Shown here piece after piece: positions 17,233 through 55,697 of a stretch of DNA of 64,000 nt; position 1 is the first letter of the stretch; each line of letters starts with the position of its first letter. The stretch lies in the IMG/VR virus record IMGVR_UViG_3300049215_000496, positions 1-64,000 of that record. One strand, given 5' to 3'. The translations under genes and the position numbers were made by a program. The DNA comes from a virus. Under the pieces are notes generated by a model. It saw only the letters and a program-made list of their open reading frames with translations. It made no database searches and was not told the origin of the DNA.

Positions 17233-18039
17233 TTACTTCCGCGTCAGCAGTGCCACCGTCAGTACCCCTGCAAGGACAATCCCGCCGATCAGCAGATGAG
17301 ATTGTTTGACGGGTGCACGAAGGCCCGGGACGCGTACCATGCCGGGGGGAGGCGGAAGGGCCTGCTCTACTTGATTGGCGGCTGTCGCGATCTCGTTGGC
17401 AACTTCTTGCGCTCCTGGAGGTGGCGCGCTGTCTTGGACTGACTCGGGATACTGTGCGGCAGCAACTTGTGCTTCGGCTTGTGCCTGCATTTCAGCGCGC
17501 TGATCTCCTGCCGGATCCGCGGGGGCTTCCCCGGACTTGGCCGACTTGTTCAAGAGGGCGTTCAGCACAGCGATCAGGATTGGGAGCGAAGCCGCGATCA
17601 CGCCGGCCGATACTGGTTCACCGAGTCCTGACGATCCGAGATGCACGTAGGACGGCCCCGCGAACAAAGCCAGAATGCGTCCATGGGGACCGGTGCCCTT
17701 GAGCTTGTTTTGCGTCCACGTCTTCGCTTCGGCTTGCTCAGCTGCATTGGGCGTTTTGTTCTTTCGCCGATCCCATGCAAGCTTCGCCGCGCGGCGATTT
17801 TTCAGCTTGTTGACGCGGCTGCGAATGGGCACGGTCAGTTTGGATGCGAGCCAGCGCGAGGGCGCTACTGCTAGCAAGTATGCCGGTGCCACCGCGATCT
17901 TGCCTGTGGTCTTAGCGACCTTCACTGTTTCGCGGCCGACCACACGTCCTGCCGACGCGGTGGATCGCGCAACGCTTTTGACGGCTTTGATCGGATTCAA
18001 GCTGAATCCCAAGCCTTCCGTTGTCGTGGTGAGCATCAC
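17233..18039 (-). CDS. Membrane protein with basic N-terminal half and C-terminal TM anchor
   Basis: HLLIGGIVLAGVLTVALLTRK end; GLG motifs. Confidence 0.65.
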   Translation of the reverse strand: MMLTTTTEGLGFSLNPIKAVKSVARSTASAGRVVGRETVKVAKTTGKIAVAPAYLLAVAPSRWLASKLTVPIRSRVNKLKNRRAAKLAWDRRKNKTPNAAEQAEAKTWTQNKLKGTGPHGRILALFAGPSYVHLGSSGLGEPVSAGVIAASLPILIAVLNALLNKSAKSGEAPADPAGDQRAEMQAQAEAQVAAAQYPESVQDSAPPPGAQEVANEIATAANQVEQALPPPPGMVRVPGLRAPVKQSHLLIGGIVLAGVLTVALLTRK

Positions 18040-18650
18040 GCACCCTTTGGAGACTTGTTCTTCTTGCGATTCTTCACGAAGTAGTAACCCCCGATGCCGG
18101 CTCCGACGAGCACAACGCCAACGATAATGTGCGTTTTGTTGAAGTGGTGCTTTGGCGCGGGTGGGGGAGAGTCGGCTTCGGACTCGGCTGCTGCCGCTGC
18201 GCCGCCGTCCGCCGCGTCTTGTGTTGGACGCAGATCGGCTTCGGGCGATGCGGGCGAAATCTGTGGCGGCGCGGGCGTCGGTGCGGGTGTGGGCGATGCA
18301 GGTGTTTGAACGATCATTTGCGGCGGAGGCGCGGCGGGTGGCGGTGCCAGCGTGGCGGAAGTTGTAGCGGTCACGCGGGTTCGGAGCATTCGACGGCGCT
18401 CCAGAGCGGCCATCTGACGCGCTTGGAACAGCGCCTGCTCGGCACGTCGCCGTTCCAGCTCTTGCTGCAGGCGCTGCCGCTGTGCAAGCTCTGCTTGGCG
18501 TCGCAACATCGCGTCGGCTTCTCGCCGCTGCATCAGCTGTTGTGCTTGCTGTACGGACGGCAGAGGGTGCGGAGCAAACGCACCACGTCGCGCAGGGGCG
18601 TATTGCATTATCGGCGGGCGAAAAGGGGTCTGGCCAAAATACATTGTCAT
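18036..18650 (-). CDS. Coiled-coil/Pro-rich protein with C-terminal TM anchor
   Basis: Q/R-rich helix, Pro linker, HIIVGVVLVGAGIGGYYFVKNRKK. Confidence 0.65.
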   Translation of the reverse strand: MTMYFGQTPFRPPIMQYAPARRGAFAPHPLPSVQQAQQLMQRREADAMLRRQAELAQRQRLQQELERRRAEQALFQARQMAALERRRMLRTRVTATTSATLAPPPAAPPPQMIVQTPASPTPAPTPAPPQISPASPEADLRPTQDAADGGAAAAAESEADSPPPAPKHHFNKTHIIVGVVLVGAGIGGYYFVKNRKKNKSPKGA

Positions 18651-19021
18651 TTCCTCATGGTGAGAACGAGCACGAGCCCGATACCGACAGCGGCTGCAAT
18701 CACAAGAATGTGACTTTGCTTGTTGATTGGACCGACGGGCGCACCGCCGCCGCCGCCGCCGCCGCCGCCGTCGTTGTCTTCACCGCCGTACCCTTGTGGG
18801 GGATACATTGGCGGAGCTGGAGGCACTCCCGGGCGGCGCGGCGGTCCGAGGGCTTTTTGGACTTGCGAAACAGTCGCCTGTGCTCGGGCGTACTGTTGCG
18901 GCGCATACGTTCGTGCGGCGACGTTCGCAACGTTCTGCACGCGTGGATCTCGAACAGCCGTGGCCACTCCCCGTGCGATGGACGAGAACGGGTTCGAGCC
19001 CAACGTGGTTCCGAGTAGCAC
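18647..19021 (-). CDS. Pro/Gly-rich protein with C-terminal TM anchor
   Basis: G8 tract; KQSHILVIAAAVGIGLVLVLTMRK. Confidence 0.65.
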   Translation of the reverse strand: MLLGTTLGSNPFSSIARGVATAVRDPRVQNVANVAARTYAPQQYARAQATVSQVQKALGPPRRPGVPPAPPMYPPQGYGGEDNDGGGGGGGGGAPVGPINKQSHILVIAAAVGIGLVLVLTMRK

Positions 19022-19103
19022 CGCATTATCCTACGAGGTTGAGCGGACCTGTGTCAATGCAAGCACTTGACCACAAGGCCACTCGTACCGCATCCTGTTG
19101 ATC

Positions 19104-20105
19104 GTGCTCTACGATTCGGCCGCGACGCTTCGCGCACACAGCGTGCGCACGCTCAAAGATCGCGTGGTGTATCTGCGCAAGTTGGTTTGGTGGGGGGACG
19201 GGGCGTTTCGACGGGGCGGTCCCCCAACGGGCGGCTTGCGCGATGCGATGATGCGGCAGATCGGTCTCGCTGTCACAGAGTCGTGCCGCGCACGCGACGA
19301 CATGTGTGAGTTGTCGTCGATCTTCGAATTCGTGAAGCGCAACGTACGGTACACAGGCGACATCAGTGACAAGGACACGTTTCAGTCTGCGTACAGAACG
19401 TTGCAGTACGGCGGCGGAGATTGTCTGCCACTGGACACAATTGTATGCAAAGCTGTTGCCGGTACAGTAACCCCAACGTTTGTTCCGTTGTACACGATCA
19501 TGGAAGGTGATCGGATCATGGCTAATGGCGCGGGAAATTGGACCCGCGTGTTGAAGTGTTGGTTTACAGGGCTGAAACAGATTTTAGTGTTCGAACTGAG
19601 CAATGGAACGGCACTTCGCTGCTCGCCAGAGCACAGACTTCTGTTTTTAAACGGTGGTGAGATTCGTGCCGCTCGCATTGAGGTTGGCGATCAGCTTCTT
19701 ACGCCGCGAAATGAGATACCATTAGAACACGGTACAATTCCTGTTTCGCTTGAAGGTGTTCGTGTTGTAGCTATAAAGGCTGATAAACATGCCAAGTTGT
19801 GCATGGATATAACAACAGATGCAGGTATGTTTTGGCTTCCAGAATCGGATGTGTTAGTTCACAACTGTGACGATCATTCTGTTCTCAACGCCGTGCTTGC
19901 AATGGAGAACGGATTCAGCACGCGCTTTCGCATAACAAGCAACACAGGCGCAACGTGGGACCACATATTCTGTATGGCCGGCGTTCCAAAAGGATCGCCG
20001 CGTAAGTGGGTGGCGCTCGACACGACGTTGCCGGGATCGAACAAGTTCGGTGTGCAACCACCGATGGTGAAGTATCAAGACTTCGATGTGACGGAGGCAA
20101 AGTGA
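19104..20105 (+). CDS. Transglutaminase-like cysteine protease, intein-containing
   Basis: IFEFVKRNVRYTGD, TLQYGGGD|CDDHS (after splicing), WDHIF, WVALDTT: Cys-His-Asp triad pattern. Confidence 0.8.
   Translation: MLYDSAATLRAHSVRTLKDRVVYLRKLVWWGDGAFRRGGPPTGGLRDAMMRQIGLAVTESCRARDDMCELSSIFEFVKRNVRYTGDISDKDTFQSAYRTLQYGGGDCLPLDTIVCKAVAGTVTPTFVPLYTIMEGDRIMANGAGNWTRVLKCWFTGLKQILVFELSNGTALRCSPEHRLLFLNGGEIRAARIEVGDQLLTPRNEIPLEHGTIPVSLEGVRVVAIKADKHAKLCMDITTDAGMFWLPESDVLVHNCDDHSVLNAVLAMENGFSTRFRITSNTGATWDHIFCMAGVPKGSPRKWVALDTTLPGSNKFGVQPPMVKYQDFDVTEAK
19422..19865 (+). mobile_element. Mini-intein (148 aa, no homing endonuclease)
   Basis: Starts CLPLDT, block B LRCSPEHRL, block F CMDITT, ends VLVHN followed by +1 Cys. 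Confidence 0.9.
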
Positions 20106-20398
20106 AATCGCTCACGCGTGGTGAAGTGCGTAAGGTGTTGAAGAAGCTGCGCACGCTGGGAGTCAAGCCTCCGCGTGTTGGGTGGTGCGTAATGGTGATC
20201 GGGGGCAGTGATTCGGTTGAGCTGTGTCGGCATCCGCGCAGCCGTTTCATTCCGAATGACACAGGCTACCAGATCGTGACTCAGCGTCGTGACCACGGAC
20301 TGTTTGGCGCACACAGGAGCCGCCGCAAACCACTGACGGCCGCGCAGCTCCGCGACAAGCTTGCGTGCAAGATCTTCGGCGGCAAAGCGTGTCGGTGA
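20102..20398 (+). CDS. Small basic protein
   Basis: GTG overlaps upstream stop; contains GLFGAHRSRRK. Confidence 0.55.
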   Translation: MKSLTRGEVRKVLKKLRTLGVKPPRVGWCVMVIGGSDSVELCRHPRSRFIPNDTGYQIVTQRRDHGLFGAHRSRRKPLTAAQLRDKLACKIFGGKACR

Positions 20399-20801: not shown

Positions 20802-20813
20802 GCTTTTCGTGCG

Positions 20814-21470
20814 ATGATGTACCAAGCTGCACGATCGCTGGGCGCCGCGGTTCCCACAAACATCCTGCGTTTGCAGAATGCGCTCGTCGCGCTTGGGCGC
20901 CGGAAGAATGATCCCGCGTTGATGATCTCTGTCGACGGGCTTGTTGGTCCGCAAACAGTAAATGCCACGCGACGGGCGCTCATCACATATGTGGTTGCGG
21001 GTGCTGGATCGGCTCCTGCCAACTGGGGACGCACACTCACCACATCCACGCTCAGAGCAAATGCAACCGAGATTGCAGGGTACATCGAGCGTGCCGCGGG
21101 GATTTCACCCCCGGCGGCTCAAGGTGACGATGGCCTCATGACACCCGCGTCGTTGTTTCCCGTCCCGTCTACGCCGTCGGCTCCGACGGTTCAACATCCC
21201 GGAGGATCCATGCCTGCGTATCAACCACAACCGCAATACTACCCACCCACGCAGTACGCGCCTCCGGTGCGGGCGTATCCCCCGCAAGGATACGGCCCGG
21301 CACGCGGCCCTGGCGATCTGCCCACCGATCGCGCGACATTGGATGTCAAAGCGTTCATTCCAGCGCAGTATGAACACGTTTCGATTTCACCCTTCGTTGG
21401 AATCGCACTGATCATCGGCGTTGTGTCGTTCGTGTACGTGATCAAGCAGCACAAAATCGTCGCTAAGTGA
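20814..21470 (+). CDS. Peptidoglycan-binding-like domain protein with C-terminal TM
   Basis: LQNALVALG..VDGLVGPQT; Pro/Tyr/Gln linker; TM plus basic end. Confidence 0.65.
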   Translation: MMYQAARSLGAAVPTNILRLQNALVALGRRKNDPALMISVDGLVGPQTVNATRRALITYVVAGAGSAPANWGRTLTTSTLRANATEIAGYIERAAGISPPAAQGDDGLMTPASLFPVPSTPSAPTVQHPGGSMPAYQPQPQYYPPTQYAPPVRAYPPQGYGPARGPGDLPTDRATLDVKAFIPAQYEHVSISPFVGIALIIGVVSFVYVIKQHKIVAK

Positions 21471-21838: not shown

Positions 21839-21841
21839 GGT

Positions 21842-22126: not shown

Positions 22127-22132
22127 GGATGC

Positions 22133-22889: not shown

Positions 22890-23015
22890 ATGGCCAAGAG
22901 ACATTGCCGGTTCGGTGTGAACAAGAAAACGAAAACGCACACGTGCTTGAAGCGCAAGCGCAAAGCACGAAGCCTGTCGGGGGCGCATCGCCATCGTCGA
23001 CGGCACTGCAGGTAG
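22890..23015 (+). CDS. Very basic 41-aa protein, putative DNA-condensing core protein
   Basis: MAKRHCRFGVNKKTKTHTCLKRKRKARSLSGAHRHRRRHCR with AAGGGAG RBS. Confidence 0.6.
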   Translation: MAKRHCRFGVNKKTKTHTCLKRKRKARSLSGAHRHRRRHCR

Positions 23016-23064: not shown

Positions 23065-23598
23065 ATGAATCTCGGACGACATCGACGCCGCGGCTTCGGC
23101 GAGGGTTTTGGCGGCCCTCACATCGCAGGACCACTCATCGGTGGTGGTGCGACGCAGATCGGAATCATGCTGGCGCATCTCCACGCCAAGAAAAATCCTG
23201 CAGCGCTTCGGCATGCAGGGTTGCACGGGGCTGTGCTCGGGGGTCTCGTTTCGGGACTGCTCGCGCTCAGCTCGAAGCATCGCGCGACAGGCATCTCGGC
23301 TCTCGTGACCGTGGGCATCATGACGGCGCCTCGAATTCTGGAAGGCTTCATGGGTCTCGGGCACCGTCAAGAGCAGCTGAAAGAAGCCGAACTAGGCATC
23401 ATCACGCCGGAGCAGTACCAAGCGCTTTCGGGCGCCGGTGAAGAGCCCGCCGTGCAGCTGCTCGATTCGGGCTCGGGATCGACGGGCGTGTTGGGGACGA
23501 CCGTGGCGGAAGAGTATCACGGCTTGAGCGGTGCTGGTGACAGCCCCGTCGAGCTGCTGGGCAACGGCTTCGGCACGAACTTCCTGGCCGCGCAATAA
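23065..23598 (+). CDS. Putative major virion membrane protein
   Basis: AAGGA RBS; three hydrophobic segments; two LSGAG repeats; directly upstream of capsid candidate. Confidence 0.6.
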   Translation: MNLGRHRRRGFGEGFGGPHIAGPLIGGGATQIGIMLAHLHAKKNPAALRHAGLHGAVLGGLVSGLLALSSKHRATGISALVTVGIMTAPRILEGFMGLGHRQEQLKEAELGIITPEQYQALSGAGEEPAVQLLDSGSGSTGVLGTTVAEEYHGLSGAGDSPVELLGNGFGTNFLAAQ

Positions 23599-23722: not shown

Positions 23723-24511
23723 ATGGCGAATACTGGCACACTGACTGTGCGTGTTCGTGGGGTACCGTTCCCCATCGAATTCGCAGACTGGACGCACGAT
23801 CGTCTGTACCACACGGTGGAGTTCGAGGGCTCGGATGCCCAAGAGATCCAAGTGTTCATCGGAGCGGCGGGTTCGCCGATCCCCGGTGGAAGCCGCGTGC
23901 TGACGATCGTCGACACCAACATCCCGCGCTCGGGTGACACCGGGTTGCAGGAAGGCTGGGAGATGCTCATCTACTCGATCCAGATCGAGGTGGTGCGCGA
24001 GATGGGTCGAAACGCTGCGCAGCAGTCGTTCTCACTCCAAGACATTACGACGGCGGGTGGCGCGACGCAGTTCTCGCGCAACACGCACGTCGGCGGGTAC
24101 GATCCGATCAACGCCTCGGGCGGCGTGCTCTTCGACTTCCTGCGCAAGGTCTACCATCGGTTTCAGGTGAACCAGAAGGTGCAGAGCGAAGGTCCCGTCG
24201 AGAAGTATCCGCAAGGGTCGGGGATCAGCGTTTTCGGCGTCACCACGGGGTTGGAGGTCGCGAACAATGGCGTTCCTTCTCCTCGTGATCAGTCGGCGTT
24301 CGTTTTGCCGATCTGGCTGCGCCCGAACATTGCCTACGTGGGGAAGCTTGCTCCTCAAGCGGCGCTCGGGATTGGCGGTCCGGCTGCGGCGATGGGGCCT
24401 CCGTTCGCGACGGTTGGAGGTTACTTCGACTGGACGGGAATTCCTGCGACGAACCTCGGGTTTGACGTTCGGGAAACGCTCGAAGGTCTGTTGAAGCGAC
24501 CTGTTGTGTAA
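23723..24511 (+). CDS. Candidate major capsid protein (single jelly-roll-like, large)
   Basis: 262 aa beta-rich, strongly C/G-ending codons, followed by strong terminator; LYHTV..F..,TNI..G.L, EGL.KRPV end; fold is inference. Confidence 0.5.
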   Translation: MANTGTLTVRVRGVPFPIEFADWTHDRLYHTVEFEGSDAQEIQVFIGAAGSPIPGGSRVLTIVDTNIPRSGDTGLQEGWEMLIYSIQIEVVREMGRNAAQQSFSLQDITTAGGATQFSRNTHVGGYDPINASGGVLFDFLRKVYHRFQVNQKVQSEGPVEKYPQGSGISVFGVTTGLEVANNGVPSPRDQSAFVLPIWLRPNIAYVGKLAPQAALGIGGPAAAMGPPFATVGGYFDWTGIPATNLGFDVRETLEGLLKRPVV

Positions 24512-25128: not shown

Positions 25129-25130
25129 AA

Positions 25131-26495: not shown

Positions 26496-26975
26496 ATGAT
26501 CTGCCGGACCTACGTCGTCAAGATGCCCACCAGTTCCTCGTCTACGCCGTTGGACATCTTGGTGCAGGATTCTCCCGGAACGCAGGACGCGCCCATTGTC
26601 GTTGGCGATGCTGCGTACTACGAGTGGCGCGGGCGCCCGGTGCGCATCCCGGTCGAATCGGGAGGTGCACCCCCATCCGCCGCCGCCATCACAGCAGGGT
26701 TCGTGCCGCGCTTTCGCCTGGGGTGCCTGGTGAGCCTCACACCGATTCGCACGGGCATCGCATCTGATCTACCTGGCATGCAGCTTTCGTCGTCGCTGGC
26801 GTCGTTGGCCAGCACGGACGGCGGTCCGGTGATCAACATCCCGGCGTTTGCCGATCCTGCGGGTGGCCCTGCGATCCGCTTGACCGGTGGTGTCGGCACG
26901 GCGGGCGGGTACTACCTCGTGGCGTTGAGGATTCCCGAGGCGAAGGACGAGGACCGCGAAGGCACGGGCGTGTGA
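26496..26975 (+). CDS. Hypothetical protein
   Basis: RBS GGGGAG; promoter TTGCGT-18-TAGAGT at 26442-26471. Confidence 0.55.
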   Translation: MICRTYVVKMPTSSSSTPLDILVQDSPGTQDAPIVVGDAAYYEWRGRPVRIPVESGGAPPSAAAITAGFVPRFRLGCLVSLTPIRTGIASDLPGMQLSSSLASLASTDGGPVINIPAFADPAGGPAIRLTGGVGTAGGYYLVALRIPEAKDEDREGTGV

Positions 26976-27400
26976 TGATCATCTCCCTCGGTGCAGGCTA
27001 CCCGCTCGTCCCCGTGCCCTATCCGGATGACAATCCGGATCACGGGGGCGGCCCGATCCGCAAGAGCCCCAACAACGCGCTGCCCGCGCACGCCGGCAAC
27101 ATGGTGTATCGCACGCTGTTGCTCGTCACGCGTGAAGCCGAGGCAGGCTCGCGCTGGCCTGGTGATCTGTCCAAGATGATGTTTCTGCCCGACGGCCGCC
27201 TCGTGCCGGCCAAGCCGTACGCGTTCGATATGTTCAACGGTGCTGGTGAATCTTCGAGCGGCTTTCTTCACACGCTCGTGCCCGCGCTGTCGATGTTCGC
27301 GGGCGCAGGTGCCGGGTACAAGCTGTCGAGCAAGCATCGTGCGTTGAGCACGTTTGGTGGTGCTGTGGTCGGGGGAATTCTTGGTCTGATTTTTCGGTGA
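26972..27400 (+). CDS. Membrane protein with two C-terminal TM helices
   Basis: LSSKHRALSTFGGAVVGGILGLIFR end. Confidence 0.6.
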   Translation: MMIISLGAGYPLVPVPYPDDNPDHGGGPIRKSPNNALPAHAGNMVYRTLLLVTREAEAGSRWPGDLSKMMFLPDGRLVPAKPYAFDMFNGAGESSSGFLHTLVPALSMFAGAGAGYKLSSKHRALSTFGGAVVGGILGLIFR

Positions 27401-28142: not shown

Positions 28143-28419
28143 GTGGCCGGAAAACACAAAAAGATTGCAGTCGCTATCCCCTCGTGGGTAAACGCGCTCA
28201 CACCGAATGACGCGTGCCTGCGCAGCGTGGCTGAAGACGTGTACACCGCGAAAGCGTTTGCTGAAAGTTACGGGGCAACTGAAAAGTCCAAAGTGTGTGG
28301 GCTTGCTCAGCGCCGCGAACAAATCGCTGCGTATGTTGGAGAACTCGAAAGCGGGGGACAAGCTGCGCTGCCGAGAAGGTGATCGGGCAGCGCGCAAGTT
28401 CTGGGAGGCAACACAATGA
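28143..28419 (+). pseudogene. Frameshifted paralog of 26130..26384
   Basis: ACLRSVAEDVYTA..YGA in one frame and CVGLL..RCREGDRAARKFWEA in +1 frame; extra A in AAAA 28282-28285. Confidence 0.7.
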
Positions 28420-28580
28420 ACCCTCAAAAATCCAACGCAGGAACAGTGGCACTCGTGCTCGGTGGCCTCGCGGCTGTCGGAACGGCAGCAGCCGTAGCGT
28501 TCAGCGGAAGCAAGAAACCTGCCCCGCGTCTAGGATCTGTGCGCCGCCCCGTGCGCAAGCCCTGTGGTTGCGGCCGATAA
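28416..28580 (+). CDS. 54-aa membrane peptide ending KPCGCGR
   Basis: Own translation MNPQKSNAGTVALVLGGLAAVGTAAAVAFSGSKKPAPRLGSVRRPVRKPCGCGR; GGAGG RBS. Confidence 0.6.
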   Translation: MNPQKSNAGTVALVLGGLAAVGTAAAVAFSGSKKPAPRLGSVRRPVRKPCGCGR

Positions 28581-40637: not shown

Positions 40638-40802
40638 TCATCGTGTGTCATTGAACACCCGAAACCTGAAGCACGTAAGGCATTTCGGTTCTCCGATCAA
40701 CCTTCGAATCGTGTTATCAATAGTTTTGAGTGTGCTCCTAGCGAGTTCACGTTGACGTTTTTTAACGCGTCGGCGTTTGATACGTCGTTTACGTTTTGTC
40801 AT
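40638..40802 (-). CDS. 54-aa very basic protein
   Basis: Own translation MTKRKRRIKRRRVKKRQRELARS..CLTC; ATGA overlap with recombinase stop. Confidence 0.4.
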   Translation of the reverse strand: MTKRKRRIKRRRVKKRQRELARSTLKTIDNTIRRLIGEPKCLTCFRFRVFNDTR

Positions 40803-41515
40803 CTGGGCACCACATCCGGTTTCACTCCGCGCAACCCCAACAAAGCCCCGTCCAGTCGGGCCGCGGCTGCCTTGGTTCCTCGTGCGTATCCCAACGTGAC
40901 GGCGAGATTCCGGTGCCCGACGTGTTCCTGGACAACCACCGGCACCACCCCCGCCTCCAGCAAGTGCGTGACGATCGAGTGCCTGAATACGTGCGGATGC
41001 CGGCGCTCGACCTCAACACCGATCTCCTTGAGCACACTGTCCGCCAGCGCCGCGACCTCGTGCCGAGACACTCCCCAACGCTTGCCTGTCGTCCCGCAGT
41101 GATAGCAGTCGATCTTCTGGACCTGCTTGCTTTTGCTCGTCGTGAGCTGCCCCGAGCCCTGACACGGGTAGCAGTCCCCTGGTTGCGCGCTCGGGAACAG
41201 AAACGGCTTTTGTTCAACTGCGACGATGCTGTCAGGCTGCACCTTGAGCCACGGAGGGAGCGCGGCCCGGCACTCGTGCAGGAGAGCATCCCATTCGCGC
41301 TCGGCGCCGTGCTTCAGGTGCACCACACGGGCGCGGCTGTTGTGTGTGTCGACGTCCTTCAAGAGCTGCAAGCCGGGCTCGGACGCGCGGGCGCCCCACT
41401 CGTAGAGCCAGGCAAGAAGCGCGTACTCGAATGGGCCTCGGGCTTTGGCGACGGCGAGGGCACGATTGACCTCGTCGACTTCGAGCACGGCTTTCTCGTT
41501 ACGGGTTGTGGGCAT
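40799..41515 (-). CDS. Short tyrosine recombinase with Zn-finger insert
   Basis: GARASE (R), HLKHG (K), HVFRHS (HxxR), GHRN (H), GYAR (Y); CYPCQGSG..CYHCGTTG insert. Confidence 0.85.
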   Translation of the reverse strand: MPTTRNEKAVLEVDEVNRALAVAKARGPFEYALLAWLYEWGARASEPGLQLLKDVDTHNSRARVVHLKHGAEREWDALLHECRAALPPWLKVQPDSIVAVEQKPFLFPSAQPGDCYPCQGSGQLTTSKSKQVQKIDCYHCGTTGKRWGVSRHEVAALADSVLKEIGVEVERRHPHVFRHSIVTHLLEAGVVPVVVQEHVGHRNLAVTLGYARGTKAAAARLDGALLGLRGVKPDVVPR

Positions 41516-41698
41516 CGTCTTTGACAGTCTTAGGTGTTGAGCTTTTTCCACCAGCGAGCGCTGCACCGCCAGAAACTCACCTTGGAATTCTCCTTCTTGA
41601 CCACTGTCTGTTTCCGCTGCATCATCACCGCACACTACCTGCAAGAGTGGAGTCTTGCAAGAATTAAGTTACGCTACGTAACACTACGCACTGCGTTA

Positions 41699-43263: not shown

Positions 43264-43293
43264 TTGACCCTCTCACCGCCCTGAGAGTAGAAT
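43264..43293 (+). promoter_or_regulatory. Sigma70-like promoter, leaderless
   Basis: TTGACC-18 bp-TAGAAT, ATG 7 nt downstream. Confidence 0.7.
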
Positions 43294-43300
43294 CTCTAGA

Positions 43301-43588
43301 ATGAACGAGATTTTCACCCTCAGCGGAGCTGACGCGCCGTTCTACCTTGCAGCTCCGCCGGCAATCGACGTGGAGTGCGCCCAGAAGGTCAAGACGGTGC
43401 TGGTGGTCGGCAGCTTGACCACGATCAGCGCGGTCCCCGTCGGGCTCTTCGGCACGTACAAGCTCATCAAGGGGAAGGGAGCCGCCGGGATCACGGCGCT
43501 TCTGGCGATGGGCGCGCTGTTCTTTGTCGGTCGCACGTTGGTCGCTTCGAGCGCGAAGGCGTTCGACACGTGCCGAAAGGGCGCGTGA
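43301..43588 (+). CDS. Small two-TM protein
   Basis: Two hydrophobic helices bracketed by Cys; TLSGAD near N-terminus. Confidence 0.6.
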   Translation: MNEIFTLSGADAPFYLAAPPAIDVECAQKVKTVLVVGSLTTISAVPVGLFGTYKLIKGKGAAGITALLAMGALFFVGRTLVASSAKAFDTCRKGA

Positions 43589-47108: not shown

Positions 47109-47504
47109 CTACACCGCAATCGTTCCGAAAGGCGCGGTCACCGACACCGTTGCCGGACCCCCTGATGCCAAGCGCATCTGAATACGAACCATCGGCCTAC
47201 GCCGCTTGAACTCTGCATCGAGAAAATGCGCTCCAACGGCAAGTGTTGATCCGCCGTTGTCCGTGAACGTTCGCAGGATCTCGGGCATCTTGATGGCACC
47301 CAATCCCGTATCCTCCTCGGCGATCTCGCGGAACCACGGGCCGCTAGGAGCTTCCCCCGTTTCGAGATACCATTCGATCACCGCAGGAGCTGTGACTACT
47401 GTGATCTCGAAGCCAAAGGTGGCGTCAACGCCCGCGATCAACAGGGCCTTCGTCGCTTTGAAGGATGCCGAAAGTGCGCCATTGAACAAGCTGACAACGC
47501 TCAT
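47109..47504 (-). CDS. Beta-rich putative virion protein (paralog of 8102..8482)
   Basis: MSVVSLFNGALSASFKATK..EWYLE..WFREIAEE. Confidence 0.65.
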   Translation of the reverse strand: MSVVSLFNGALSASFKATKALLIAGVDATFGFEITVVTAPAVIEWYLETGEAPSGPWFREIAEEDTGLGAIKMPEILRTFTDNGGSTLAVGAHFLDAEFKRRRPMVRIQMRLASGGPATVSVTAPFGTIAV

Positions 47505-48007
47505 TTTCGTTTCTTCTTGAGTGCCGCAGCAACCAGCGACAACGCGATCAAAACCGACACACCACCGACCACGTACCACACCCACTGCTGATTCGATGCC
47601 ATTCCGGTATTCTGCTGCGTGATCGGTATCGGAACGAGCGCGCCACTCGACGAGGATCTGCGAACGGCACGCTGAACAACTGGATCCGGAACGCTCCCGC
47701 CACTCTTTTGCACGCGTTGCGCGACGAGCGCCGCGAGTGCCCCTGCGTACTGCCGCACGCGCGTGACGTCCAGGTCAGCGCGAGGGAACGCCGAGGTGCC
47801 ACCGACGTACGTCGCCAGCGCGTAGTTGACAGCTTTCACCGTCGCTGGCCCGATCACGCCATCGACCGCGACCTTTGACAGATTCGGATCGCCTGTCGTA
47901 TTCCCGAGAGCCTTCAGCGCGTTCTGAAGCTGCGCCGCAGGGGATACAGGTGCGGGAGACGCGGCGGGCGCTGCGTGAGCACCTGAAATGGTGTAGATTT
48001 CCGCCAT
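47501..48007 (-). CDS. Peptidoglycan-binding-like protein with C-terminal TM (paralog of 20814..21470)
   Basis: LQNALKALG..DP..VDGVIGPAT; WVWYVVGG..LKKKRK. Confidence 0.65.
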   Translation of the reverse strand: MAEIYTISGAHAAPAASPAPVSPAAQLQNALKALGNTTGDPNLSKVAVDGVIGPATVKAVNYALATYVGGTSAFPRADLDVTRVRQYAGALAALVAQRVQKSGGSVPDPVVQRAVRRSSSSGALVPIPITQQNTGMASNQQWVWYVVGGVSVLIALSLVAAALKKKRK

Positions 48008-48076
48008 AGGCGATCCGGGTCCAAAGACTGTACCACGGGTTGCAAGTGCAGCGAAAGTGGCTGTAGTATTGAAGCC

Positions 48077-48873: not shown

Positions 48874-49112
48874 TGCCAAAAACTCTAAAGACGGTGTGCG
48901 CCCTGACAGGCGGTGGGTTCGTCCTGTATACGTCAGCGAACGGCAGACTTCGCCCAATTGCTGCGCCTGCCGGATACACGCCTAACGTGATGTCGTACGC
49001 GACGGAAGGGGAAGCGCATCGGGCCGGACGCCGACTCTTGCTACGCTACCCGAGCAAAAAATTCGTCGTTCACGATTGTCGCAAGAAAGCAACCGATCCG
49101 GTGTATCCGTGA
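48873..49112 (+). CDS. Small basic protein
   Basis: TGATG coupling; MPKTLKTVC.. Confidence 0.5.
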   Translation: MPKTLKTVCALTGGGFVLYTSANGRLRPIAAPAGYTPNVMSYATEGEAHRAGRRLLLRYPSKKFVVHDCRKKATDPVYP

Positions 49113-49648
49113 CGGCAGGCAAGAAAAAGAAAGGCATCCCACCGACCGTCTGCAATTTCATGGCGGTACTGTCCTCGAAGCTCACGCAACACGACGTGAA
49201 GGAGAGCGCCCGCGAGATGAAACGTGGCAACGCCAACATCTATCGCCTCGGGCACTTGTTGGAAGCAAAGCAGAAGGTCGAAGCCGACGTGGCACGCGTG
49301 GTGCCCAACTGCGACGTGACCGTGACCCCCGAGATCGCCGCTACGATCAAGCGTAGCCTCAACACGCGTTTCAATCCCGGCTTTCCTCCCATTCGGAACG
49401 TCGAGAAGCAGCTCGATGCGTTTCTCGCGAGTGGCAAGCAGCCGTCGCTTCTCGGGGCGCGCCGCTTAGGATCGAGCAAGACCAAGCTAGATTTGATCTT
49501 GGACAAAGTGCAGCGCGGTGTGCGAGAAGTTACGTTCGATGCAGAAGGCTACACTAAACAACAATTGCAACGTCTCGTGTCGACAGCAAAGAATCGTGGG
49601 TTGCACGTCTCAGGTACCAAGCGCTGGATTCTAGTCCGATCTTTGTGA
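49109..49648 (+). CDS. Basic two-domain protein
   Basis: Lys-rich; domains joined by SLLGARRLGSSK. Confidence 0.55.
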   Translation: MTAGKKKKGIPPTVCNFMAVLSSKLTQHDVKESAREMKRGNANIYRLGHLLEAKQKVEADVARVVPNCDVTVTPEIAATIKRSLNTRFNPGFPPIRNVEKQLDAFLASGKQPSLLGARRLGSSKTKLDLILDKVQRGVREVTFDAEGYTKQQLQRLVSTAKNRGLHVSGTKRWILVRSL

Positions 49649-49815
49649 TGCTGCGTGCAGCACAAATCGGTTCGTTCTCCACCGACGCACGCACGGCAAT
49701 CACCGTCGCGCCCGACTACTTCGTGCGCTGGTACACCATCAAGAGCATCGGGCTCGGTGTGGTCGCCGCAGCGCTGGCGTTCATGATCGGGCGTGCGACA
49801 GCGCAACACCGCTGA
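49648..49815 (+). CDS. 55-aa membrane peptide
   Basis: Own translation MLRAAQIGSFS..IGLGVVAAALAFMIGRATAQHR; TGATG coupling. Confidence 0.5.
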   Translation: MLRAAQIGSFSTDARTAITVAPDYFVRWYTIKSIGLGVVAAALAFMIGRATAQHR

Positions 49816-49852
49816 CTTGCACCTACCCCCCACAGCAAGCTACTCTTGCAGC

Positions 49853-50284
49853 ATGAAACGCATTGCACTGCTTCTCGTCCTGCTCTCCGCTTCGCTGACC
49901 CCCAGTTGTGCGACAGTCCAGAAAAACCTGCCGACGGTTCTGGCGTATGTGCAAGACGGAATGTTGGTCCTCGACGAGATCGCACGCTTTGCGCCAATCG
50001 TCTTCGCAGCGCACCCTGATCCAGCACTCGAAGCCAAAGTGGATGCCGGTTTGAGCAAAGCTCGGGCAGCTCTCGATACGGCTTTGCGAATCGCTCAAGG
50101 CACCACGGACATCAACCAAGCACAGCTCGACGCCGCATTCGCGGAATTCAAGCAAGCCTACTTGGACGTGACAGGGCTCCTCGGCCCATACGGAGTGAGT
50201 CGTCAAGGTACGGCGATGGTCGCGCGGGGTGGACCGAAGCCAACGCTGGTGGTCCCCGAACCGCTGGCGGTAATCGGACGGTGA
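49853..50284 (+). CDS. Putative lipoprotein
   Basis: MKRIALLLVLLSASLTPS-C signal peptide with Cys. Confidence 0.6.
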   Translation: MKRIALLLVLLSASLTPSCATVQKNLPTVLAYVQDGMLVLDEIARFAPIVFAAHPDPALEAKVDAGLSKARAALDTALRIAQGTTDINQAQLDAAFAEFKQAYLDVTGLLGPYGVSRQGTAMVARGGPKPTLVVPEPLAVIGR

Positions 50285-51144
50285 GCACAACTTTCCAGAA
50301 GCGTGGGCGCGGTTGGCTGAAAGACAAGCCGGACGCCCGAGACCATTCCTACAGCGCGAAGCGCACAGCAGGTGCAGTAGCGTCCCCGGATGCGCACCTC
50401 CGCAAGTACATCCTGGACATCCTAGATCAAGGATCCGAGGGTTCGTGCGTCGCCAATTCGCTAGCCCAAAACGTTCGGATGTCCCACGTTCGCCAGGGAG
50501 CAGTCAATCCCCCCCTGCTGTCGCGTAATGGCCTTTACTACCTCGCGCGAGCCGTGACGGGTGACCAACACCAGGACACCGGTACGTACACTCGCAACGC
50601 TTGCGCGGCTCTGGTCAAATTCGGCTTCGCTCCTGAGTCCGTGTGGCCCTACGACGACAACACCAAGCCTGGCCCAAACGGAGAGCTTCCGAAGTTCGCC
50701 CAGATGCCACCCGCGGAGTTCTTTCGACAAGGCTTCGATCAAAAGGCGAAGCAAACAGCGGCGGGGGTGCTGCCGGCCTACTTACGAATCACAGAAACCG
50801 GAACGGATCGCATCGCCGTCATTCGACACGCTCTTGCGTCGGGCTTCGGCGTGTCGTTCGGAACGTTGGTGTCGGAAGCCTTTTGCGCAGGAGAAACCGA
50901 TTCGACCAAAGCATTAGGCCCCCCGATCAACGAACAGATTGCTGGCGGTCACGAGCTGCTGATCACAGACAGTTGGACGATGCCCGACGGATCGTTCGAG
51001 TTCAGCATTTGCAATTCGTGGAGCAAAGATTGGGGCGACGGCGGGTTCTTTCGCATGCGCACGGACTATGTAAAGTGGTCTGAAACGGATGATCTGTGGA
51101 TCGTCGAAGCGCCGCCTCTCTACTCCACGGAGCTGTCGTCATGA
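50281..51144 (+). CDS. Papain-like (C1) cysteine peptidase
   Basis: GWLKDKPDARD, DQGSEGSCVAN, GGHELLI, NSWSKDWGDGGFF. Confidence 0.9.
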   Translation: MSTTFQKRGRGWLKDKPDARDHSYSAKRTAGAVASPDAHLRKYILDILDQGSEGSCVANSLAQNVRMSHVRQGAVNPPLLSRNGLYYLARAVTGDQHQDTGTYTRNACAALVKFGFAPESVWPYDDNTKPGPNGELPKFAQMPPAEFFRQGFDQKAKQTAAGVLPAYLRITETGTDRIAVIRHALASGFGVSFGTLVSEAFCAGETDSTKALGPPINEQIAGGHELLITDSWTMPDGSFEFSICNSWSKDWGDGGFFRMRTDYVKWSETDDLWIVEAPPLYSTELSS

Positions 51145-51419
51145 TGCGCGCGTTGCTGATCGCTGGAATGTTCTTTCTTGGTGAAGGCTGCCCGCACCCG
51201 GCGCCTCCACCTGTTCCGCCAACACCCGTGATCGCCTCATGCGCCACGGTTTGCGCACACGAAACGGATCTCGGCTGCCCCGCGGCCCGCTCGACGCCGA
51301 ACGGCGCGACCTGCGAAGATGTGTGCCGAAACGTTCAGACGTCTGGAATCATCACGTGGGATCTCGCGTGCCGCAGCACCGCGCCCACCTGTTCGGCTAT
51401 CGACGCGTGCGAGCGCTGA
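51141..51419 (+). CDS. Cys-rich lipoprotein
   Basis: MRALLIAGMFFLGEG-C; CATVC..GC..CEDVC..C..C..C. Confidence 0.65.
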   Translation: MMRALLIAGMFFLGEGCPHPAPPPVPPTPVIASCATVCAHETDLGCPAARSTPNGATCEDVCRNVQTSGIITWDLACRSTAPTCSAIDACER

Positions 51420-51551: not shown

Positions 51552-52307
51552 TCAGGTTCGACCGGACGCTGCGGGGGTGAGCGCCGGATCTTCACGAAGC
51601 ATCGCACACGCTTGCGCCAGAATTTGACACGCACGTGATTCCGTTCGCTCGATAACGATGCCGATCTCGCCAAGGGACAAATCTTGGCAGAAGTACAGCG
51701 TCAGCACGCGCTGCATCTGAAGTGGAAGCCTTTCGATCGCCGCTTGCAAGCAATCAAGCATCTGTCCGTGTGCGGCTGCTTGTAGCGCGTCGACGGCTTT
51801 AGGATCCGCGGTGAGTTCGAAGAAGTCGCGGCCGGGCGGCACGGCTTCGTCGTACCCAACCACACGGTCCCCCGCGAGGCGGCTGCGCATCTTTGCCAGT
51901 TCAGCATCGGTAAGGCCCATGTGCGCGGCGATCTCACTTTGGTCCGGCGTGCGCATGAGTGCCCTTTCAAGCTCGTTCACAACGTCTCGGAGGTGCATGG
52001 ACACACGGCGCATGTCTCGCGACAGCGTATCGTTGGCTCGAATCGAATCCAGCATGGCGCCCCGAATCCGTGTCTCAGCAAATCCCTCGAACGACACGCC
52101 GTGCTTAGCATCGTACCGCGTCGCCGCGTCGATGAGCCCGAGGTTACCGGCTGCGATCAAGTCATCGAGATCGATGTGGTCTGGCAGCTTGCGAGCCAAA
52201 CGGCGTGCGACGTTGGCTACAAACGGGAGGGGGTCAGCGATCAGTGCGTCGCGTTTGTGGCGTGCTGCTTGCGAGATAGCCTGCGGAGGTTTTCGTCGTC
52301 GGTCCAC
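51552..52307 (-). CDS. FliA/WhiG-family sigma factor
   Basis: DDLIAAGNLGLIDAATRYD, FAETRIRGAMLDSIR..D, LYFCQDLSLGEIG..TESRACQI. Confidence 0.9.
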   Translation of the reverse strand: MDRRRKPPQAISQAARHKRDALIADPLPFVANVARRLARKLPDHIDLDDLIAAGNLGLIDAATRYDAKHGVSFEGFAETRIRGAMLDSIRANDTLSRDMRRVSMHLRDVVNELERALMRTPDQSEIAAHMGLTDAELAKMRSRLAGDRVVGYDEAVPPGRDFFELTADPKAVDALQAAAHGQMLDCLQAAIERLPLQMQRVLTLYFCQDLSLGEIGIVIERTESRACQILAQACAMLREDPALTPAASGRT

Positions 52308-52316
52308 ATTTTCGCG

Positions 52317-52496
52317 TCAGCACTTTTTGAGCAGTGCATCGCGCTTGCGCATGAGACGCTTCACGACGGGATCGTCAAACAGTCCGCCGCGACCGCTCAC
52401 GAATCCCGTATAGCCGTGCTTGTCAGCTTTGGCCATTGCACGCAAGAGATTCTCCTCGATGATCCGACGCTTGATTTTGCACGCGTGTGAAGTCAT
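52317..52496 (-). CDS. Small basic protein
   Basis: MTSHACKIKRR..RKRDALLKKC. Confidence 0.45.
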   Translation of the reverse strand: MTSHACKIKRRIIEENLLRAMAKADKHGYTGFVSGRGGLFDDPVVKRLMRKRDALLKKC

Positions 52497-52828
52497 CGAT
52501 GCTTCCTCGCCCCGGCCAGTGTTTCTACGATTCGGCACTCAGCGGCGTCGAGCAGATCGGCGAATCTATCGGGACGAAACACTGTGAAAGGCTCGGAGCG
52601 TTCGCCAATAGATGCGATGGGCGGGTTACCACCAATCGCGTTCTGGCGCATCCAGCGAAACCCGCTCGCGGTTTTGCACTCGATGTGCACACGCATCGGC
52701 TTCTTCAGCTTCATCGACTTCTCGTCCGCCAGGTTCGTTGAGAAGCCTTCGGATATTATTTCAGCAATCGTAGCCCGATCCTCACCACGTCCTTGCACTT
52801 TGATCAAGTCCACACGCCGCCCTGCCAT
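52493..52828 (-). CDS. Small protein ending LAGARKHR
   Basis: Start refined to MAGRRVDL. Confidence 0.5.
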   Translation of the reverse strand: MAGRRVDLIKVQGRGEDRATIAEIISEGFSTNLADEKSMKLKKPMRVHIECKTASGFRWMRQNAIGGNPPIASIGERSEPFTVFRPDRFADLLDAAECRIVETLAGARKHR

Positions 52829-53055
52829 ATTGGCCAATAACTGTGCGCCCCGTTTGGCAACAGCAGCGTTGGCACGCACACAAGTGCCGCGAACTCGCCG
52901 GAACTCGACCAACAATAACCGCGATCTGGTATTCCACGATGTGAACTGTGCTTGGCCCAAAATGTCTCGTACTTCTGGTGGGAGGAGCGCGAACCCCCGA
53001 ACTTGACGAACGGAAACTTGCTCGTGAGCCGAAGTGTTTTGCGCCGTCGAGCCAT
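52804..53055 (-). CDS. Small basic protein
   Basis: MARRRKTLRL..; RBS GAG. Confidence 0.45.
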   Translation of the reverse strand: MARRRKTLRLTSKFPFVKFGGSRSSHQKYETFWAKHSSHRGIPDRGYCWSSSGEFAALVCVPTLLLPNGAHSYWPIWQGGVWT

Positions 53056-53056
53056 C

Positions 53057-53260
53057 TTACTCGTGCCCTCGTTTCCTGCGGGAGAGTTCCGCGCAGCCCT
53101 TCATGAGCTTCGCTTTCACTGCGCGGGCCTGCGACACACTCACCGGACGCGGCAGCACGATGTAGTTCAGCAAGCGCCCGTCACGCGCGTAGAGAACCGC
53201 GACAGCGGTGCGCTTGGCGCCGCGTTGAGATTGGAAGCGAACGGTGCACTGGGCGGCCAT
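53057..53260 (-). CDS. Small basic protein
   Basis: TGATG coupling; Arg/Lys-rich. Confidence 0.5.
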   Translation of the reverse strand: MAAQCTVRFQSQRGAKRTAVAVLYARDGRLLNYIVLPRPVSVSQARAVKAKLMKGCAELSRRKRGHE

Positions 53261-53676: not shown

Positions 53677-53979
53677 CTACCGACGCTTCCGTTTCTTCGC
53701 CCCGTGCAGCTCACGAATCGAAGCCATCGCTTCGGACGAGTAGTCCTTCTCGTACGTGATCAACGGCCAGGTAAGTCGACATGCTTTGCGCACATCGCCA
53801 ACAATCAGGGGCTTTGATCCATCCCCGCCGCCGGGCGTGAGCACCTGGAGCTGCGCCCCGTGACCGGCTCCACCAACCGGGCACAAGCGAAACTCTCGCG
53901 CTTTCGTGCCCTTGCGCTGTACGATCATGCGCACGCACTCAGTGAGCTTGATCTTTTGTGCTTTGTTCCACTGAATCAT
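53677..53979 (-). CDS. Small basic protein ending LHGAKKRKRR
   Basis: GGAGG RBS before ATG 53979; may instead start at 54060. Confidence 0.55.
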   Translation of the reverse strand: MIQWNKAQKIKLTECVRMIVQRKGTKAREFRLCPVGGAGHGAQLQVLTPGGGDGSKPLIVGDVRKACRLTWPLITYEKDYSSEAMASIRELHGAKKRKRR

Positions 53980-54059
53980 CGGCGCCTCCCCGAATGACGG
54001 CGCGACACGCGACCGTGGTCGCCCACACCCACCAGCTCTTCGTCTTGGTTCTCTGTGCA

Positions 54060-54470
54060 TTACGAATCCTTGTAAATTGCCCAGAACCCGTAGAACAACC
54101 CGAACGCGGCACCGGCGATCCCCAGCGTCGCAAGTGTCGTGGTGATGTTGCCGACGATCCCCGCGCCATGAAACGACGGGGGCAGCAAGCCCTCAGGGGT
54201 GTACGGATTCGCCACGTACGACGGAGGCATCAATCCCTCGGGGGTCTGTTGCTGCGACGTGTACGTTGGCGCCATGAGCCCGCACTTGCGTCCGATCACA
54301 GTGTGGGCCTTCATCACAGTTCTCTGCGTGGACGCACTCTGACGGACCGGTGCGTTCTGTAGCAGCCCGATGGCCCGCGCGACAGCATCCCGGGCGAACA
54401 CACAATTGCCCTCACGCAGAGCTTCGTTGGCCTGACGCACGTACGACAGGATCAGCGCTTTGTGAGTCAC
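54060..54470 (-). CDS. Membrane-anchored protein with TPEGL(M/L)PPS duplication
   Basis: GTGA coupling; C-terminal TM. Confidence 0.55.
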   Translation of the reverse strand: MTHKALILSYVRQANEALREGNCVFARDAVARAIGLLQNAPVRQSASTQRTVMKAHTVIGRKCGLMAPTYTSQQQTPEGLMPPSYVANPYTPEGLLPPSFHGAGIVGNITTTLATLGIAGAAFGLFYGFWAIYKDS

Positions 54471-54931
54471 TCTGCCAGCTCCTGATATCGATGGTACAGC
54501 ATGACGCCGCCCACGACGAGTCCCGTTGCCAGCGCCAGCGCGCCAACGATCTTCCACGGAGTCCAGAACGGCTTGTCACTTCCCGCGCCCTGCACCTGAA
54601 CGACGTATGTACCGTCCGGAAGGTCAACTGCCACGCCGACAGGAACAAGCTCTTGGCCGGTCGTCCGGGGCGCACCGGCGCCGCACGGGAGCATCGTCAG
54701 CGCGTGTGTGTGGCCGTCCGACGGATCCGGTTGGACCTTGAAGTCCCGCACGCGGTGGTAGTGCCCCGAATCAACGTCAGTGTTTCCGGTGCCCTCAGCG
54801 TTCAGCCACGCCCCGTGCTTGTGCATCGGAACGTTCTTGCCTGTGTTCGTGGTCGTCTGCTGGCACGGAAAACCGGGAGGCAGCGGCCTCGCGTAGACCA
54901 CATCCGCCGGATTTGGATACTCGTTGCGCAC
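54467..54931 (-). CDS. His-motif protein with C-terminal TM
   Basis: MHKH, GHYH, DGHTH motifs; TM IVGALALATGLVVGGVML. Confidence 0.55.
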   Translation of the reverse strand: MRNEYPNPADVVYARPLPPGFPCQQTTTNTGKNVPMHKHGAWLNAEGTGNTDVDSGHYHRVRDFKVQPDPSDGHTHALTMLPCGAGAPRTTGQELVPVGVAVDLPDGTYVVQVQGAGSDKPFWTPWKIVGALALATGLVVGGVMLYHRYQELAE

Positions 54932-54953
54932 GGTGGGAGCGGGGGGCCACCCC

Positions 54954-55697
54954 TTACGCGTAGTCGTGTGGCGTGACCTGACGGACGTTGCCGGCAGCGT
55001 CGCGATACTCGGTCACGCGCCCGTTGCACACAGTGACGGTGAGCCCGTCGGACGGACGCGGCCCGTAGGTCTCACACGCGCGAACTTCCGCGACGGTCGG
55101 GGGTGAGAACATGCGAGAGAACCATCCGCGGCCCCTACGATGCCGGGGAGCCCCGAAGCCTTTCATGGTCGGTGCGGGCGCGACTGGAGCGGGCGGGGGT
55201 GGCGGAGGGGGCGGGGAGAGCATGATCGAGCGATTGTTGCCCGACTGAAACGGCAACGATCGCTGCACACGATCATCGACGTGCGTGACACCGTATCGGA
55301 TGTTGGATCCGCTCGGCATCACACCGGGAACCACACCCTGGCGCATGATCATGTACGGATCGATGTGCGCGTGCCCGCCGCGCGTGCCACCGGTGCTGCC
55401 AAAACCGATCCCGGAGAATCCTGCCATGCCTCCCGCTTTCGGTTGAACAGCAGGAGCGCTCGGGGCTGGCGCGGTGACAGCCGGGGCCGGCGCGGGAACA
55501 TTTGGCATGACCCCCGGACCTGCATTCGGATTCAGCTGCGGCATGTAGAATCCATTTGCGGCAGGCATCCGTCGCATCACTTGATTGAATGGTTGGAAGT
55601 GCGAATAGAACCCGACACCCGGAATGCCGGGGCGAAAACTCGGGCTCGCGGCTTCGGGACGAGTGAAATCTGCGTGACGGGTTTGGCCAAGAATCAT
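54954..55697 (-). CDS. Pro/Gly-rich protein
   Basis: GAGGA RBS; segments separated by GFSGIGFG and KGFGA. Confidence 0.55.
   Translation of the reverse strand: MILGQTRHADFTRPEAASPSFRPGIPGVGFYSHFQPFNQVMRRMPAANGFYMPQLNPNAGPGVMPNVPAPAPAVTAPAPSAPAVQPKAGGMAGFSGIGFGSTGGTRGGHAHIDPYMIMRQGVVPGVMPSGSNIRYGVTHVDDRVQRSLPFQSGNNRSIMLSPPPPPPPPAPVAPAPTMKGFGAPRHRRGRGWFSRMFSPPTVAEVRACETYGPRPSDGLTVTVCNGRVTEYRDAAGNVRQVTPHDYA

Follow-up and report, generated by a model that had tools for sequence, protein, structure and literature searches.

Small proteins of an uncultured virus, the host of which is presumably bacterial, were found to share a C-terminal module consisting of one hydrophobic residue, in most cases Leu, then any residue, Gly and one of Ala, Ser or Thr, followed by 4-9 Arg, Lys or His residues and the stop codon. 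The DNA analysed was the first 64 kb (the window) of a single 89,081-bp contig, IMG/VR record IMGVR_UViG_3300049215_000496, which is known from sequence alone; it was compared with its relatives. An earlier note on this DNA had seen a looser motif, hydrophobic-x-G-A/S, in about 20 small proteins and had read it as a virion-wide maturation code of the adenovirus type. The evidence does not support a cleavage code of this breadth, spanning about 20 proteins. The loose motif may rather be a composite of the C-terminal module, an N-terminal peptide and the ends of strands or helices, in which the tail would be a tag with a recognised junction; we regard the chances of this interpretation as evenly balanced.

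A glycine-hinged basic tail at the C-terminus

Relatives were found via a conserved 262-aa protein (Table 1), which led to five IMG/VR genomes of 94-122 kb (G001, G002, G003, G004 and G005, all retrieved whole) and a further 36 metagenome loci. Six-frame open reading frames (ORFs) of all genomes and loci were searched for hydrophobic-x-G-[AST] followed by a mostly basic tail of no more than 11 residues and a stop codon. The search gave 43 occurrences, compared with 1, 0, 0, 16, 0 and 4 for six permuted controls, and the position 'before a basic tail' was thereby the strongest part of what the earlier note had observed. After removal of duplicates 38 ORFs remained, which fell into 21 families by their upstream sequence and most of which had the high GC content at third codon positions of true genes. 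The largest family, with 14 of the 38 ORFs, is that of the peptide encoded at 22890 (genes are denoted here by their coordinates in the window); the other tail ORFs are mutually unrelated. Across the 21 families the hydrophobic position of the junction is near-constantly Leu, Phe or Met.

Three convincing tails are present in this genome (22890, 52493 and 53677, with internal variants at 20102 and 54954), two in G001, about six in G002, four in G003 and three in G005; the 10.9-kb locus L057 contains four. The same terminal peptide thus stands on unrelated bodies and is kept in relatives, as expected of a portable tag.

Conservation across the clade was clear for this subset of the motif. In the 22890 family L-[SA]-G-[ASH] plus poly-Arg was retained in seven of seven distinct orthologues, with all 14 tails of the family written in CGN codons; a homologue search with the 41-aa peptide as the query returned no candidates. 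In the 53677 family (nine database sequences) Leu, His and Gly were found in 9/9 and the next residue was Ala in eight and Ser in one, the L-H-G being invariant although the length of the tail varies. The orthologue of the 20102 protein in locus L086 (E 1.4e-18) ends shortly after the equivalent H-G-L-F-G-A and Arg tail. A collection-wide scan for six CGN codons followed by a stop gave one stretch; with a relaxed tail pattern there were at least 119 matches, and likewise at least 119 with its permuted control.

Three local arrangements were observed beside these genes. P0055, a homologue of the 53677 protein, has an extra 46-aa piece between L-H-G-A and poly-Arg, ending in M-Q-G-A and eight Arg residues; this is a fusion of two tagged genes or else a precursor with two modules. 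At 86185-87337 of G003 (the region of loci L043/L015) three consecutive minus-strand genes each carry the tail module (L-H-G-A, F-N-G-A and L-A-G-A, each with a basic run), with overlapping stop and start codons that couple each to the next gene. In the window, a sigma-70-family factor with regions 2, 3 and 4 is encoded at 51552-52307 beside a cluster of tail-bearing small genes.

The broad motif and the N-terminal peptide

The gene calls in the window were built from coding potential and tblastn conservation in the relatives, and the curated set comprised 49 small proteins (270 aa or less; 6873 aa in total). The enrichment proposed for small proteins was confirmed for [LFI].GA, of which 30 copies were observed versus 12.6±3.4 in shuffles; this count was reached by 0/400 whole-protein shuffles and by 0/400 shuffles within 15-aa windows. 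The pattern ranked first of 1176 comparable patterns (Poisson p 1.6e-5), and [LIFMV].GAG was found 13 times versus 1.9. At least one [LFIMV].GA was present in 23 of the 49 proteins, with 36 sites in total. Two permuted controls were flat ([LFI].AG, 13 versus 12.8; AG.[LFI], 11 versus 12.5) and a third, [LFI]G.A, was mildly raised (19 versus 12.7, a count reached by 18/400 shuffles). Nine large proteins used for comparison contained 11 copies of [LFI].GA versus 10.4 and so had no excess. The second variant proposed,.[LF]G[SAE], was not enriched (23 versus 16.2, reached by 30/400 shuffles). The strict adenovirus-type pattern gave 27 versus 18.0±3.9 in the small proteins (6/400 shuffles) and 17 versus 18.6 in the large ones.

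That the motif is non-random as protein sequence is shown by its distribution among frames and by its synonymous codons. A DNA-level repeat as the cause was rejected, as the codons under the motifs vary and the matches concentrate in coding frames; membrane glycine-zipper segments were also rejected, the excess being found outside predicted membrane segments (24 versus 10.0; 0/1000 shuffles). Merging the four paralogous E-x-Y-x-hydrophobic-S-G copies would, by simple arithmetic, cut the count from 30 to 27.

For comparison of small proteins between genomes one automatic gene caller was used throughout. With these calls the broad motif was found 29 times versus 18.5 in this genome; the observed and expected counts in the relatives were 19/19.4 (G001), 23/15.1 (G002), 25/24.4 (G003), 15/25.1 (G005) and 19/19.8 (G004). 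Among orthologues of the curated proteins the corresponding values were 19/8.6 (G002), 14/7.1 (G003), 11/7.2 (G001), 11/7.8 (G005) and 3/5.6 in G004, the most distant relative. Of 95 orthologue cells, 45 retained the motif. Taken together, its positions proved to be barely more conserved in homologues than the background (P4, 0.76 versus 0.71; P2 Gly, 0.76 versus 0.61; P1 Ala/Ser, 0.57 versus 0.51). With no enrichment in four of the five relatives, a deficit in G004 orthologues and near-background conservation, the virion-wide code in about 20 proteins did not stand. As judged from the relatives, many of the remaining [LFI]-x-G-A sites are specific to this genome.

The best-conserved N-terminal element carrying the motif has the consensus M-x-E-[IV]-[FY]-[TS]-[IL]-S-G-x, which opens the families of the 43301-43588 and 47501-48007 proteins in all six genomes, with synonymously varying codons. 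In the first of these families the peptide was present in 45 of 50 database homologues, with Ser in 45/45 and Gly in 44/45; after Gly there was Ala in 22 sequences, Pro in 12, Ser in ten and Thr in one. The Ala position that the earlier note had emphasized is therefore not the conserved feature of this element, and Pro after Gly in 12/45 is a poor fit to cutting there. In an AlphaFold2 model of the 43301-43588 protein the helical hairpin 21-94 was confident and residues 1-20 had low pLDDT (predicted local distance difference test) values; from this model the peptide is better read as a disordered docking peptide than as a cleavage site. When the transglutaminase-like enzyme described below (A3) was modelled in complex with residues 1-40 of the 43301 family (A4), the score was 0.01 compared with a mark of 0.32; the prediction was made without control runs and counts neither for nor against binding.

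A TAnnAT-like box (TAGAAT, TACTAT, TACCAT etc.) was observed 6-9 nt upstream of the ATG of genes of the 43301 family, at 43270-43300 and 48008-48040 in the window and at homologous places in G001-G005, with no Shine-Dalgarno (SD) sequence present. Transcripts of the 43301 family may be leaderless.

Candidate proteases and the possible use of the junction

The prime candidate protease of the earlier note, the transglutaminase-like gene at 19098-20105, gave weak matches to Intein_splicing and Transglut_core in Pfam. A search of the genomes with PF01841 found nothing over the cut-off; it was too weak for even the known copies and was replaced by a local jackhmmer search, which gave 15 six-frame ORFs in 15 records (11 without duplicate or near-identical records) and located the enzyme in all of the larger relatives apart from the G004 group. 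Seven relatives have intein-less forms of 175-188 aa, and in all seven the Cys-His-Asp triad, C107, H139 and D158, was invariant. An enzyme of the papain/transglutaminase fold is conserved beside the motif-bearing genes. The only PDB sequence match of the enzyme profile was 4u65_E (E 0.11, 15 bits), with a G-x-G-D-C motif aligned; in the available text of PMC4359373, entry 4U65 is a complex of a LapD orthologue with LapG. By sequence comparison the transglutaminase-fold enzyme, with its weak likeness to LapG, is a possible protease. In the G004 subclade, which is without the enzyme, there are 0-1 tails per genome, compared with 2-6 in the other genomes.

The intein at the catalytic Cys is polymorphic: it is absent from the forms of 175-188 aa, and present as a mini-intein in forms of 334-349 aa; forms of 495-547 aa have larger inserts.

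The second candidate is a papain-family peptidase (Table 1), which is encoded in a cassette at 49793-51419 consisting of a lipoprotein-like protein of 163 aa, the C1 peptidase of 287 aa and a Cys-rich protein of 107 aa. The cassette was found in L008, in G004 and in three further metagenome loci (five hits each); G001, G002, G003 and G005 lack it. The cassette and the transglutaminase-like gene are distributed in complementary fashion, apart from this genome, which has both. No clan CE (adenain-type) protease and no member of the C5, C57 or Ulp1 families was found among the 38 proteins covered by the Pfam scans.

From the observed enrichment, conservation, selection at the protein level and presence of the enzyme we infer binding, tagging and cutting as follows. 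The portable tail, on at least about 20 unrelated small proteins, would be a polycationic tag that serves for binding or addressing, to DNA or some other acidic surface, and is linked to each protein via a junction that a common factor recognises. The most likely use of the junction would be recognition, and probably cutting after the Gly-small pair, by the LapG-like transglutaminase-fold cysteine enzyme of the virus. The final codons of about 14 of the tails also contain the SD box of an overlapping downstream gene. The remaining [LFI]-x-G-A sites would be strand or helix ends before Gly/Ala hinges. That the tails are cut at the junction is proposed tentatively, by analogy with known proteases, and with chances somewhat short of even. 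The full picture, in which a LapG-like protease, often intein-guarded, clips poly-arginine DNA-binding tags from more than 20 miniproteins as a bacterial-virus counterpart of adenovirus core maturation, must be called doubtful.

One short terminal peptide on unrelated proteins is also the arrangement of the capsid-targeting sequence of phage T4, a short terminal peptide that is reportedly removed by the prohead protease, and of encapsulin cargo-loading peptides, which direct unrelated proteins into a protein shell. The tag described here differs in being polycationic with a Gly-small junction and, as also in comparison with adenain, in being known only from genes.

According to the available text of PMC4246237, the adenovirus protease (AVP, adenain) has the consensus (M/I/L)XGG-X and (M/I/L)XGX-G and releases the C-terminal peptide of pVI at I-V-G-L↓G, its substrates being basic and DNA-associated. 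The viral sites share the hydrophobic P4 and the Gly at P2 (PMC4246237), and the resemblance drawn in the earlier note is borne out to the extent that hydrophobic P4, Gly P2 and small P1 is the pattern cut by adenain and by C39 peptidases, as given in the accessible portions of PMC4246237 and PMC6363468. They differ in that most have Ala, Ser or Thr, not Gly, at P1 or P1'; at most of the conserved sites it is a basic residue, not Gly, that comes after the Ala, Ser or Thr. The candidate enzyme, moreover, has a transglutaminase/papain fold, and the host is presumably bacterial.

LapG, as described in PMC10990149, belongs to the transglutaminase-like cysteine proteases and cleaves LapA at an Ala-Ala site. 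The likeness consists in the Cys-His-Asp transglutaminase-like fold and in action on a site of small residues (PMC10990149). LapG differs in its periplasmic location, its dependence on calcium and its one adhesin substrate, and the gene of the viral enzyme stands among those of small viral proteins and in many cases has an intein at the catalytic Cys.

The N-terminal peptide resembles in its layout the C-terminal half of the double-glycine leaders that are cut by C39 peptidase domains of PCAT/AMS transporters. According to PMC6363468, these leaders end in Gly-Gly, Gly-Ala or Gly-Ser; position -8 is Glu, and positions -7 and -4 are hydrophobic. The viral peptide has Glu at -8 in 37/45, Ile or Val at -7 in 45/45, Ile or Leu at -4 in 45/45 and Gly at -2 in 44/45; position -1 is Ala or Ser in 32/45 and Pro or Thr in 13/45. 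Such leaders have about 15-30 residues with Leu at -12, whereas in the viral peptide only 9-10 residues, counted from the Met, precede the site; it has no Leu at -12 and is carried by membrane proteins rather than by exported peptides. No C39 domain or transporter was found among the 38 proteins scanned.

Several observations weigh against a common tag with a recognised junction. The 16 hits in the permuted controls of the tail search all come from one pattern, hydrophobic-G-x-[AST]. Part of the tail is explained at the nucleotide level, as 14 of the 38 tails have an SD-like box, and several tail genes adjoin the sigma-factor gene and not the virion module. For the enzyme, the intein-less form of G002 scored 22.1 bits against a Transglut_core cut-off of 23, the match to LapG is weak, and the co-distribution of enzyme and tails amounts to a single independent contrast. 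G004, which is without the transglutaminase-like enzyme, still has the N-terminal peptide. As for the broad motif, four of the five relatives have flat or depleted counts of it in their small proteins, its excess among orthologues falls with distance and its positions lie near background conservation.

Of the alternatives, the one that survives best is that nothing is cut: hydrophobic-x-Gly-small would simply end a strand or helix before a turn or hinge, and the tails and N-terminal peptides would bind DNA, membrane or capsid while still attached. The turn-forming substitutions (Gly to Asp; Pro, Ser or Thr after Gly), the position of motifs at the borders of variable linkers and the disorder of the N-terminal peptide in the monomer model are in keeping with it, but a hinge leaves unexplained both the near-constant Leu, Phe or Met before Gly in 21 unrelated families and the L-H-G of the 53677 family, which is invariant under varying tail length. 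We consider this explanation unlikely.

Lower again in probability is the possibility that the tails are a by-product of translational coupling and composition, the tails being an in-frame reading of purine- and CG-rich ribosome-binding regions of overlapping downstream genes, and the L-x-G-A ahead of them a chance product of proteins rich in Gly, Ala and Leu. It draws on the 14 tails in which an SD-like GGAGG or GGAAG is found at a fixed distance, about 14 nt ahead of the last base of the stop codon, and in which the ATG of the next gene overlaps or abuts the stop (TGATG, ATGA or TAGATG), as well as on the frequency of GGG as the Gly codon and on the confinement of the broad motif largely to this genome. 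The 14 tails of the 22890 family, however, have neither an SD box nor an overlapping downstream start. Where there is a box, several extra Arg codons of the tail lie upstream of it. Most of the permuted controls gave 0-4 occurrences versus 43, and the nucleotide tag AAGCGGAGG was not enriched in the window (10 versus 14.4 expected). The junction itself lies at a variable distance of 1-5 codons from the SD box and its codons vary synonymously (Ser as TCG or AGC, and all four Gly codons), which argues that it is selected as protein.

Least probable of all is the virion-wide code, in which the transglutaminase-like protease would cleave about 20 proteins of the virion at hydrophobic-x-G-A (and x-L/F-G-S/A/E): the [LFI].GA enrichment in this genome, the frequent placing of sites between a conserved segment and a variable linker, the conserved Cys-His-Asp enzyme inside the module and the resemblance to the AVP consensus (PMC4246237, as far as available) are outweighed by the flat or depleted counts in G001, G003, G005 and G004, the loss of the motif in more than half of the orthologue cells, the Asp for Gly in the 23065 family and Pro after Gly in the N-terminal peptide, the unenriched second variant and slight excess of the strict pattern, the lack of a clan CE protease among the proteins scanned and the several tail genes beside the sigma-factor gene, outside the virion module.

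If the junction of the tail tag is a real recognition or cleavage site, these viruses would be the first bacterial-virus group known with a shared clip-off polycationic tag, made with a protease fold unlike that of adenoviruses and giant viruses, and the two would represent convergent solutions for loading and releasing DNA-associated proteins. The junction provides a testable substrate motif for a widespread and poorly understood transglutaminase-like viral enzyme, and the tail module is a handle on dozens of otherwise unannotatable miniproteins. Should the tails never be cut, they would still form a family-independent module worth annotating. A general lesson is that loose four-residue motifs require clade-wide tests.

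Other motif-bearing genes and genome features

The ends of the contig share a 128-bp overlap, so that the assembly is either circular or terminally repeated; its IMG/VR class is direct terminal repeats. The GC content is about 58%. Genomes of the clade have about 90-120 kb, and related metagenome contigs reach 150 kb. Library scans gave matches to a family A DNA polymerase, helicases, a primase, a methyltransferase and a sigma-70-type factor and, further, to glycosyltransferases, a tyrosine integrase and collagen-like fibres; terminase, portal, HK97-type capsid and packaging ATPase all went unrecognised in scans with the PHROGs and Pfam libraries. A blastn search of a fibre gene against a phage collection gave matches to the collagen-like repeat only and no close phage record. 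The tyrosine integrase is encoded at 40799-41644 (Phage_integrase, E 4e-18), in a virus without recognisable tail or head genes. For the putative capsid protein the AlphaFold2 model had a mean pLDDT of 43.2 (a poor fold), and the nearest named clusters in the ESM Atlas were of the PRD1 P3/P2 type (0.75-0.77), which are sub-threshold leads only.

Table 1. Coordinates in the window of the genes discussed.
Position	Strand	Product	Motif or remark
19098-20105	+	Transglutaminase-fold cysteine enzyme split by a mini-intein	Candidate protease
20102-20398	+	98-aa basic protein, encoded immediately after the transglutaminase-like gene	L-F-G-A-H-R-S-R-R-K at 20300-20329
22890-23015	+	41-aa very basic two-Cys peptide	Ends in L-S-G-A and a His/Arg tail (22974-23003)
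23065-23598	+	177-aa membrane protein	Two C-terminal repeats with L-S-G-A-G (23425-23439, 23524-23538)
23723-24511		262-aa protein, putative capsid protein	Most conserved protein of the clade (70-90% identity)
26972-27400	+	142-aa protein with two hydrophobic-segment copies	D-M-F-N-G-A-G (27233) before a variable linker
28416-28580	+	54-aa membrane-anchored basic peptide	R-L-G-S-V-R-R
43301-43588	+	95-aa two-helix membrane protein	N-terminal M-N-E-I-F-T-L-S-G-A (43301-43330)
47501-48007	-	168-aa protein with C-terminal membrane anchor	N-terminal M-A-E-I-Y-T-I-S-G-A (47978-48007)
49076-49648	+	ORF	L-L-G-A-R-R-L-G-S at 49448-49474
50281-51144	+	Papain-family (C1) peptidase	Second candidate protease; Peptidase_C1, 28.1 bits versus cut-off 20.7
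52493-52960	-	Weak gene call (coding score 4.1)	Ends in L-A-G-A, RKHR and stop (52496-52519)
53677-54060	-	Small protein; the database form starts later (100 aa)	Ends in L-H-G-A, KKRKRR and stop (53680-53709)
54954-55697	-	247-aa protein	Internal F-G-A-P and R-H-R-R-G-R (55128-55160)

All 13 peptide strings quoted in the earlier note were recovered in some frame at or near their ORFs and, as far as gene calling from the sequence goes, most of the motif-carrying ORFs are real genes. Three instances are doubtful. The frame of GLGSS overlaps the better-supported gene at 43301 and gave one weak match only. The site L-L-G-A-R-R-L-G-S is inside an N-terminal extension of 49076-49648, upstream of the start of the homologues. 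The ORF 52493-52960 had no orthologue at 1e-4 in the relatives; its only likeness, over 23 aa at the C-terminus, was found in G001 (E 0.038), and its end contains an AGGAAG SD sequence and an ATG overlapping the stop.

Among the internal sites, conservation was uneven. In the 23065 family (30 distinct orthologues) the repeat flanks I-T-P-E and V-Q-L-L-D were conserved; Gly was replaced by Asp in 6/30 (L-S-D-S, L-S-D-A and L-A-D-S) and the residue after Gly varied widely. F-x-G-[AG] was retained in 10 of 12 distinct sequences of the 26972-27400 family (the window copy counted), and the R-L-G-S-V-R-R of the 28416 peptide was partly retained among seven distinct sequences. Orthologues of the 54954-55697 protein read F-G-V-P, L-G-I-P or F-G-R-P before the basic run; with Val, Ile or Arg at that place, the Ala is not kept.

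The 47501-48007 protein has a likeness to PG_binding_1 that is below the cut-off (E 0.0018). It is a paralogue of the protein encoded at 20814-21470, the two having in common a C-terminal membrane anchor and a segment (…L-Q-N-A-L…V-D-G…G-P-x-T) of peptidoglycan-binding-like type; the N-terminal E-I-Y-T-I-S-G peptide is present in one of the two alone.

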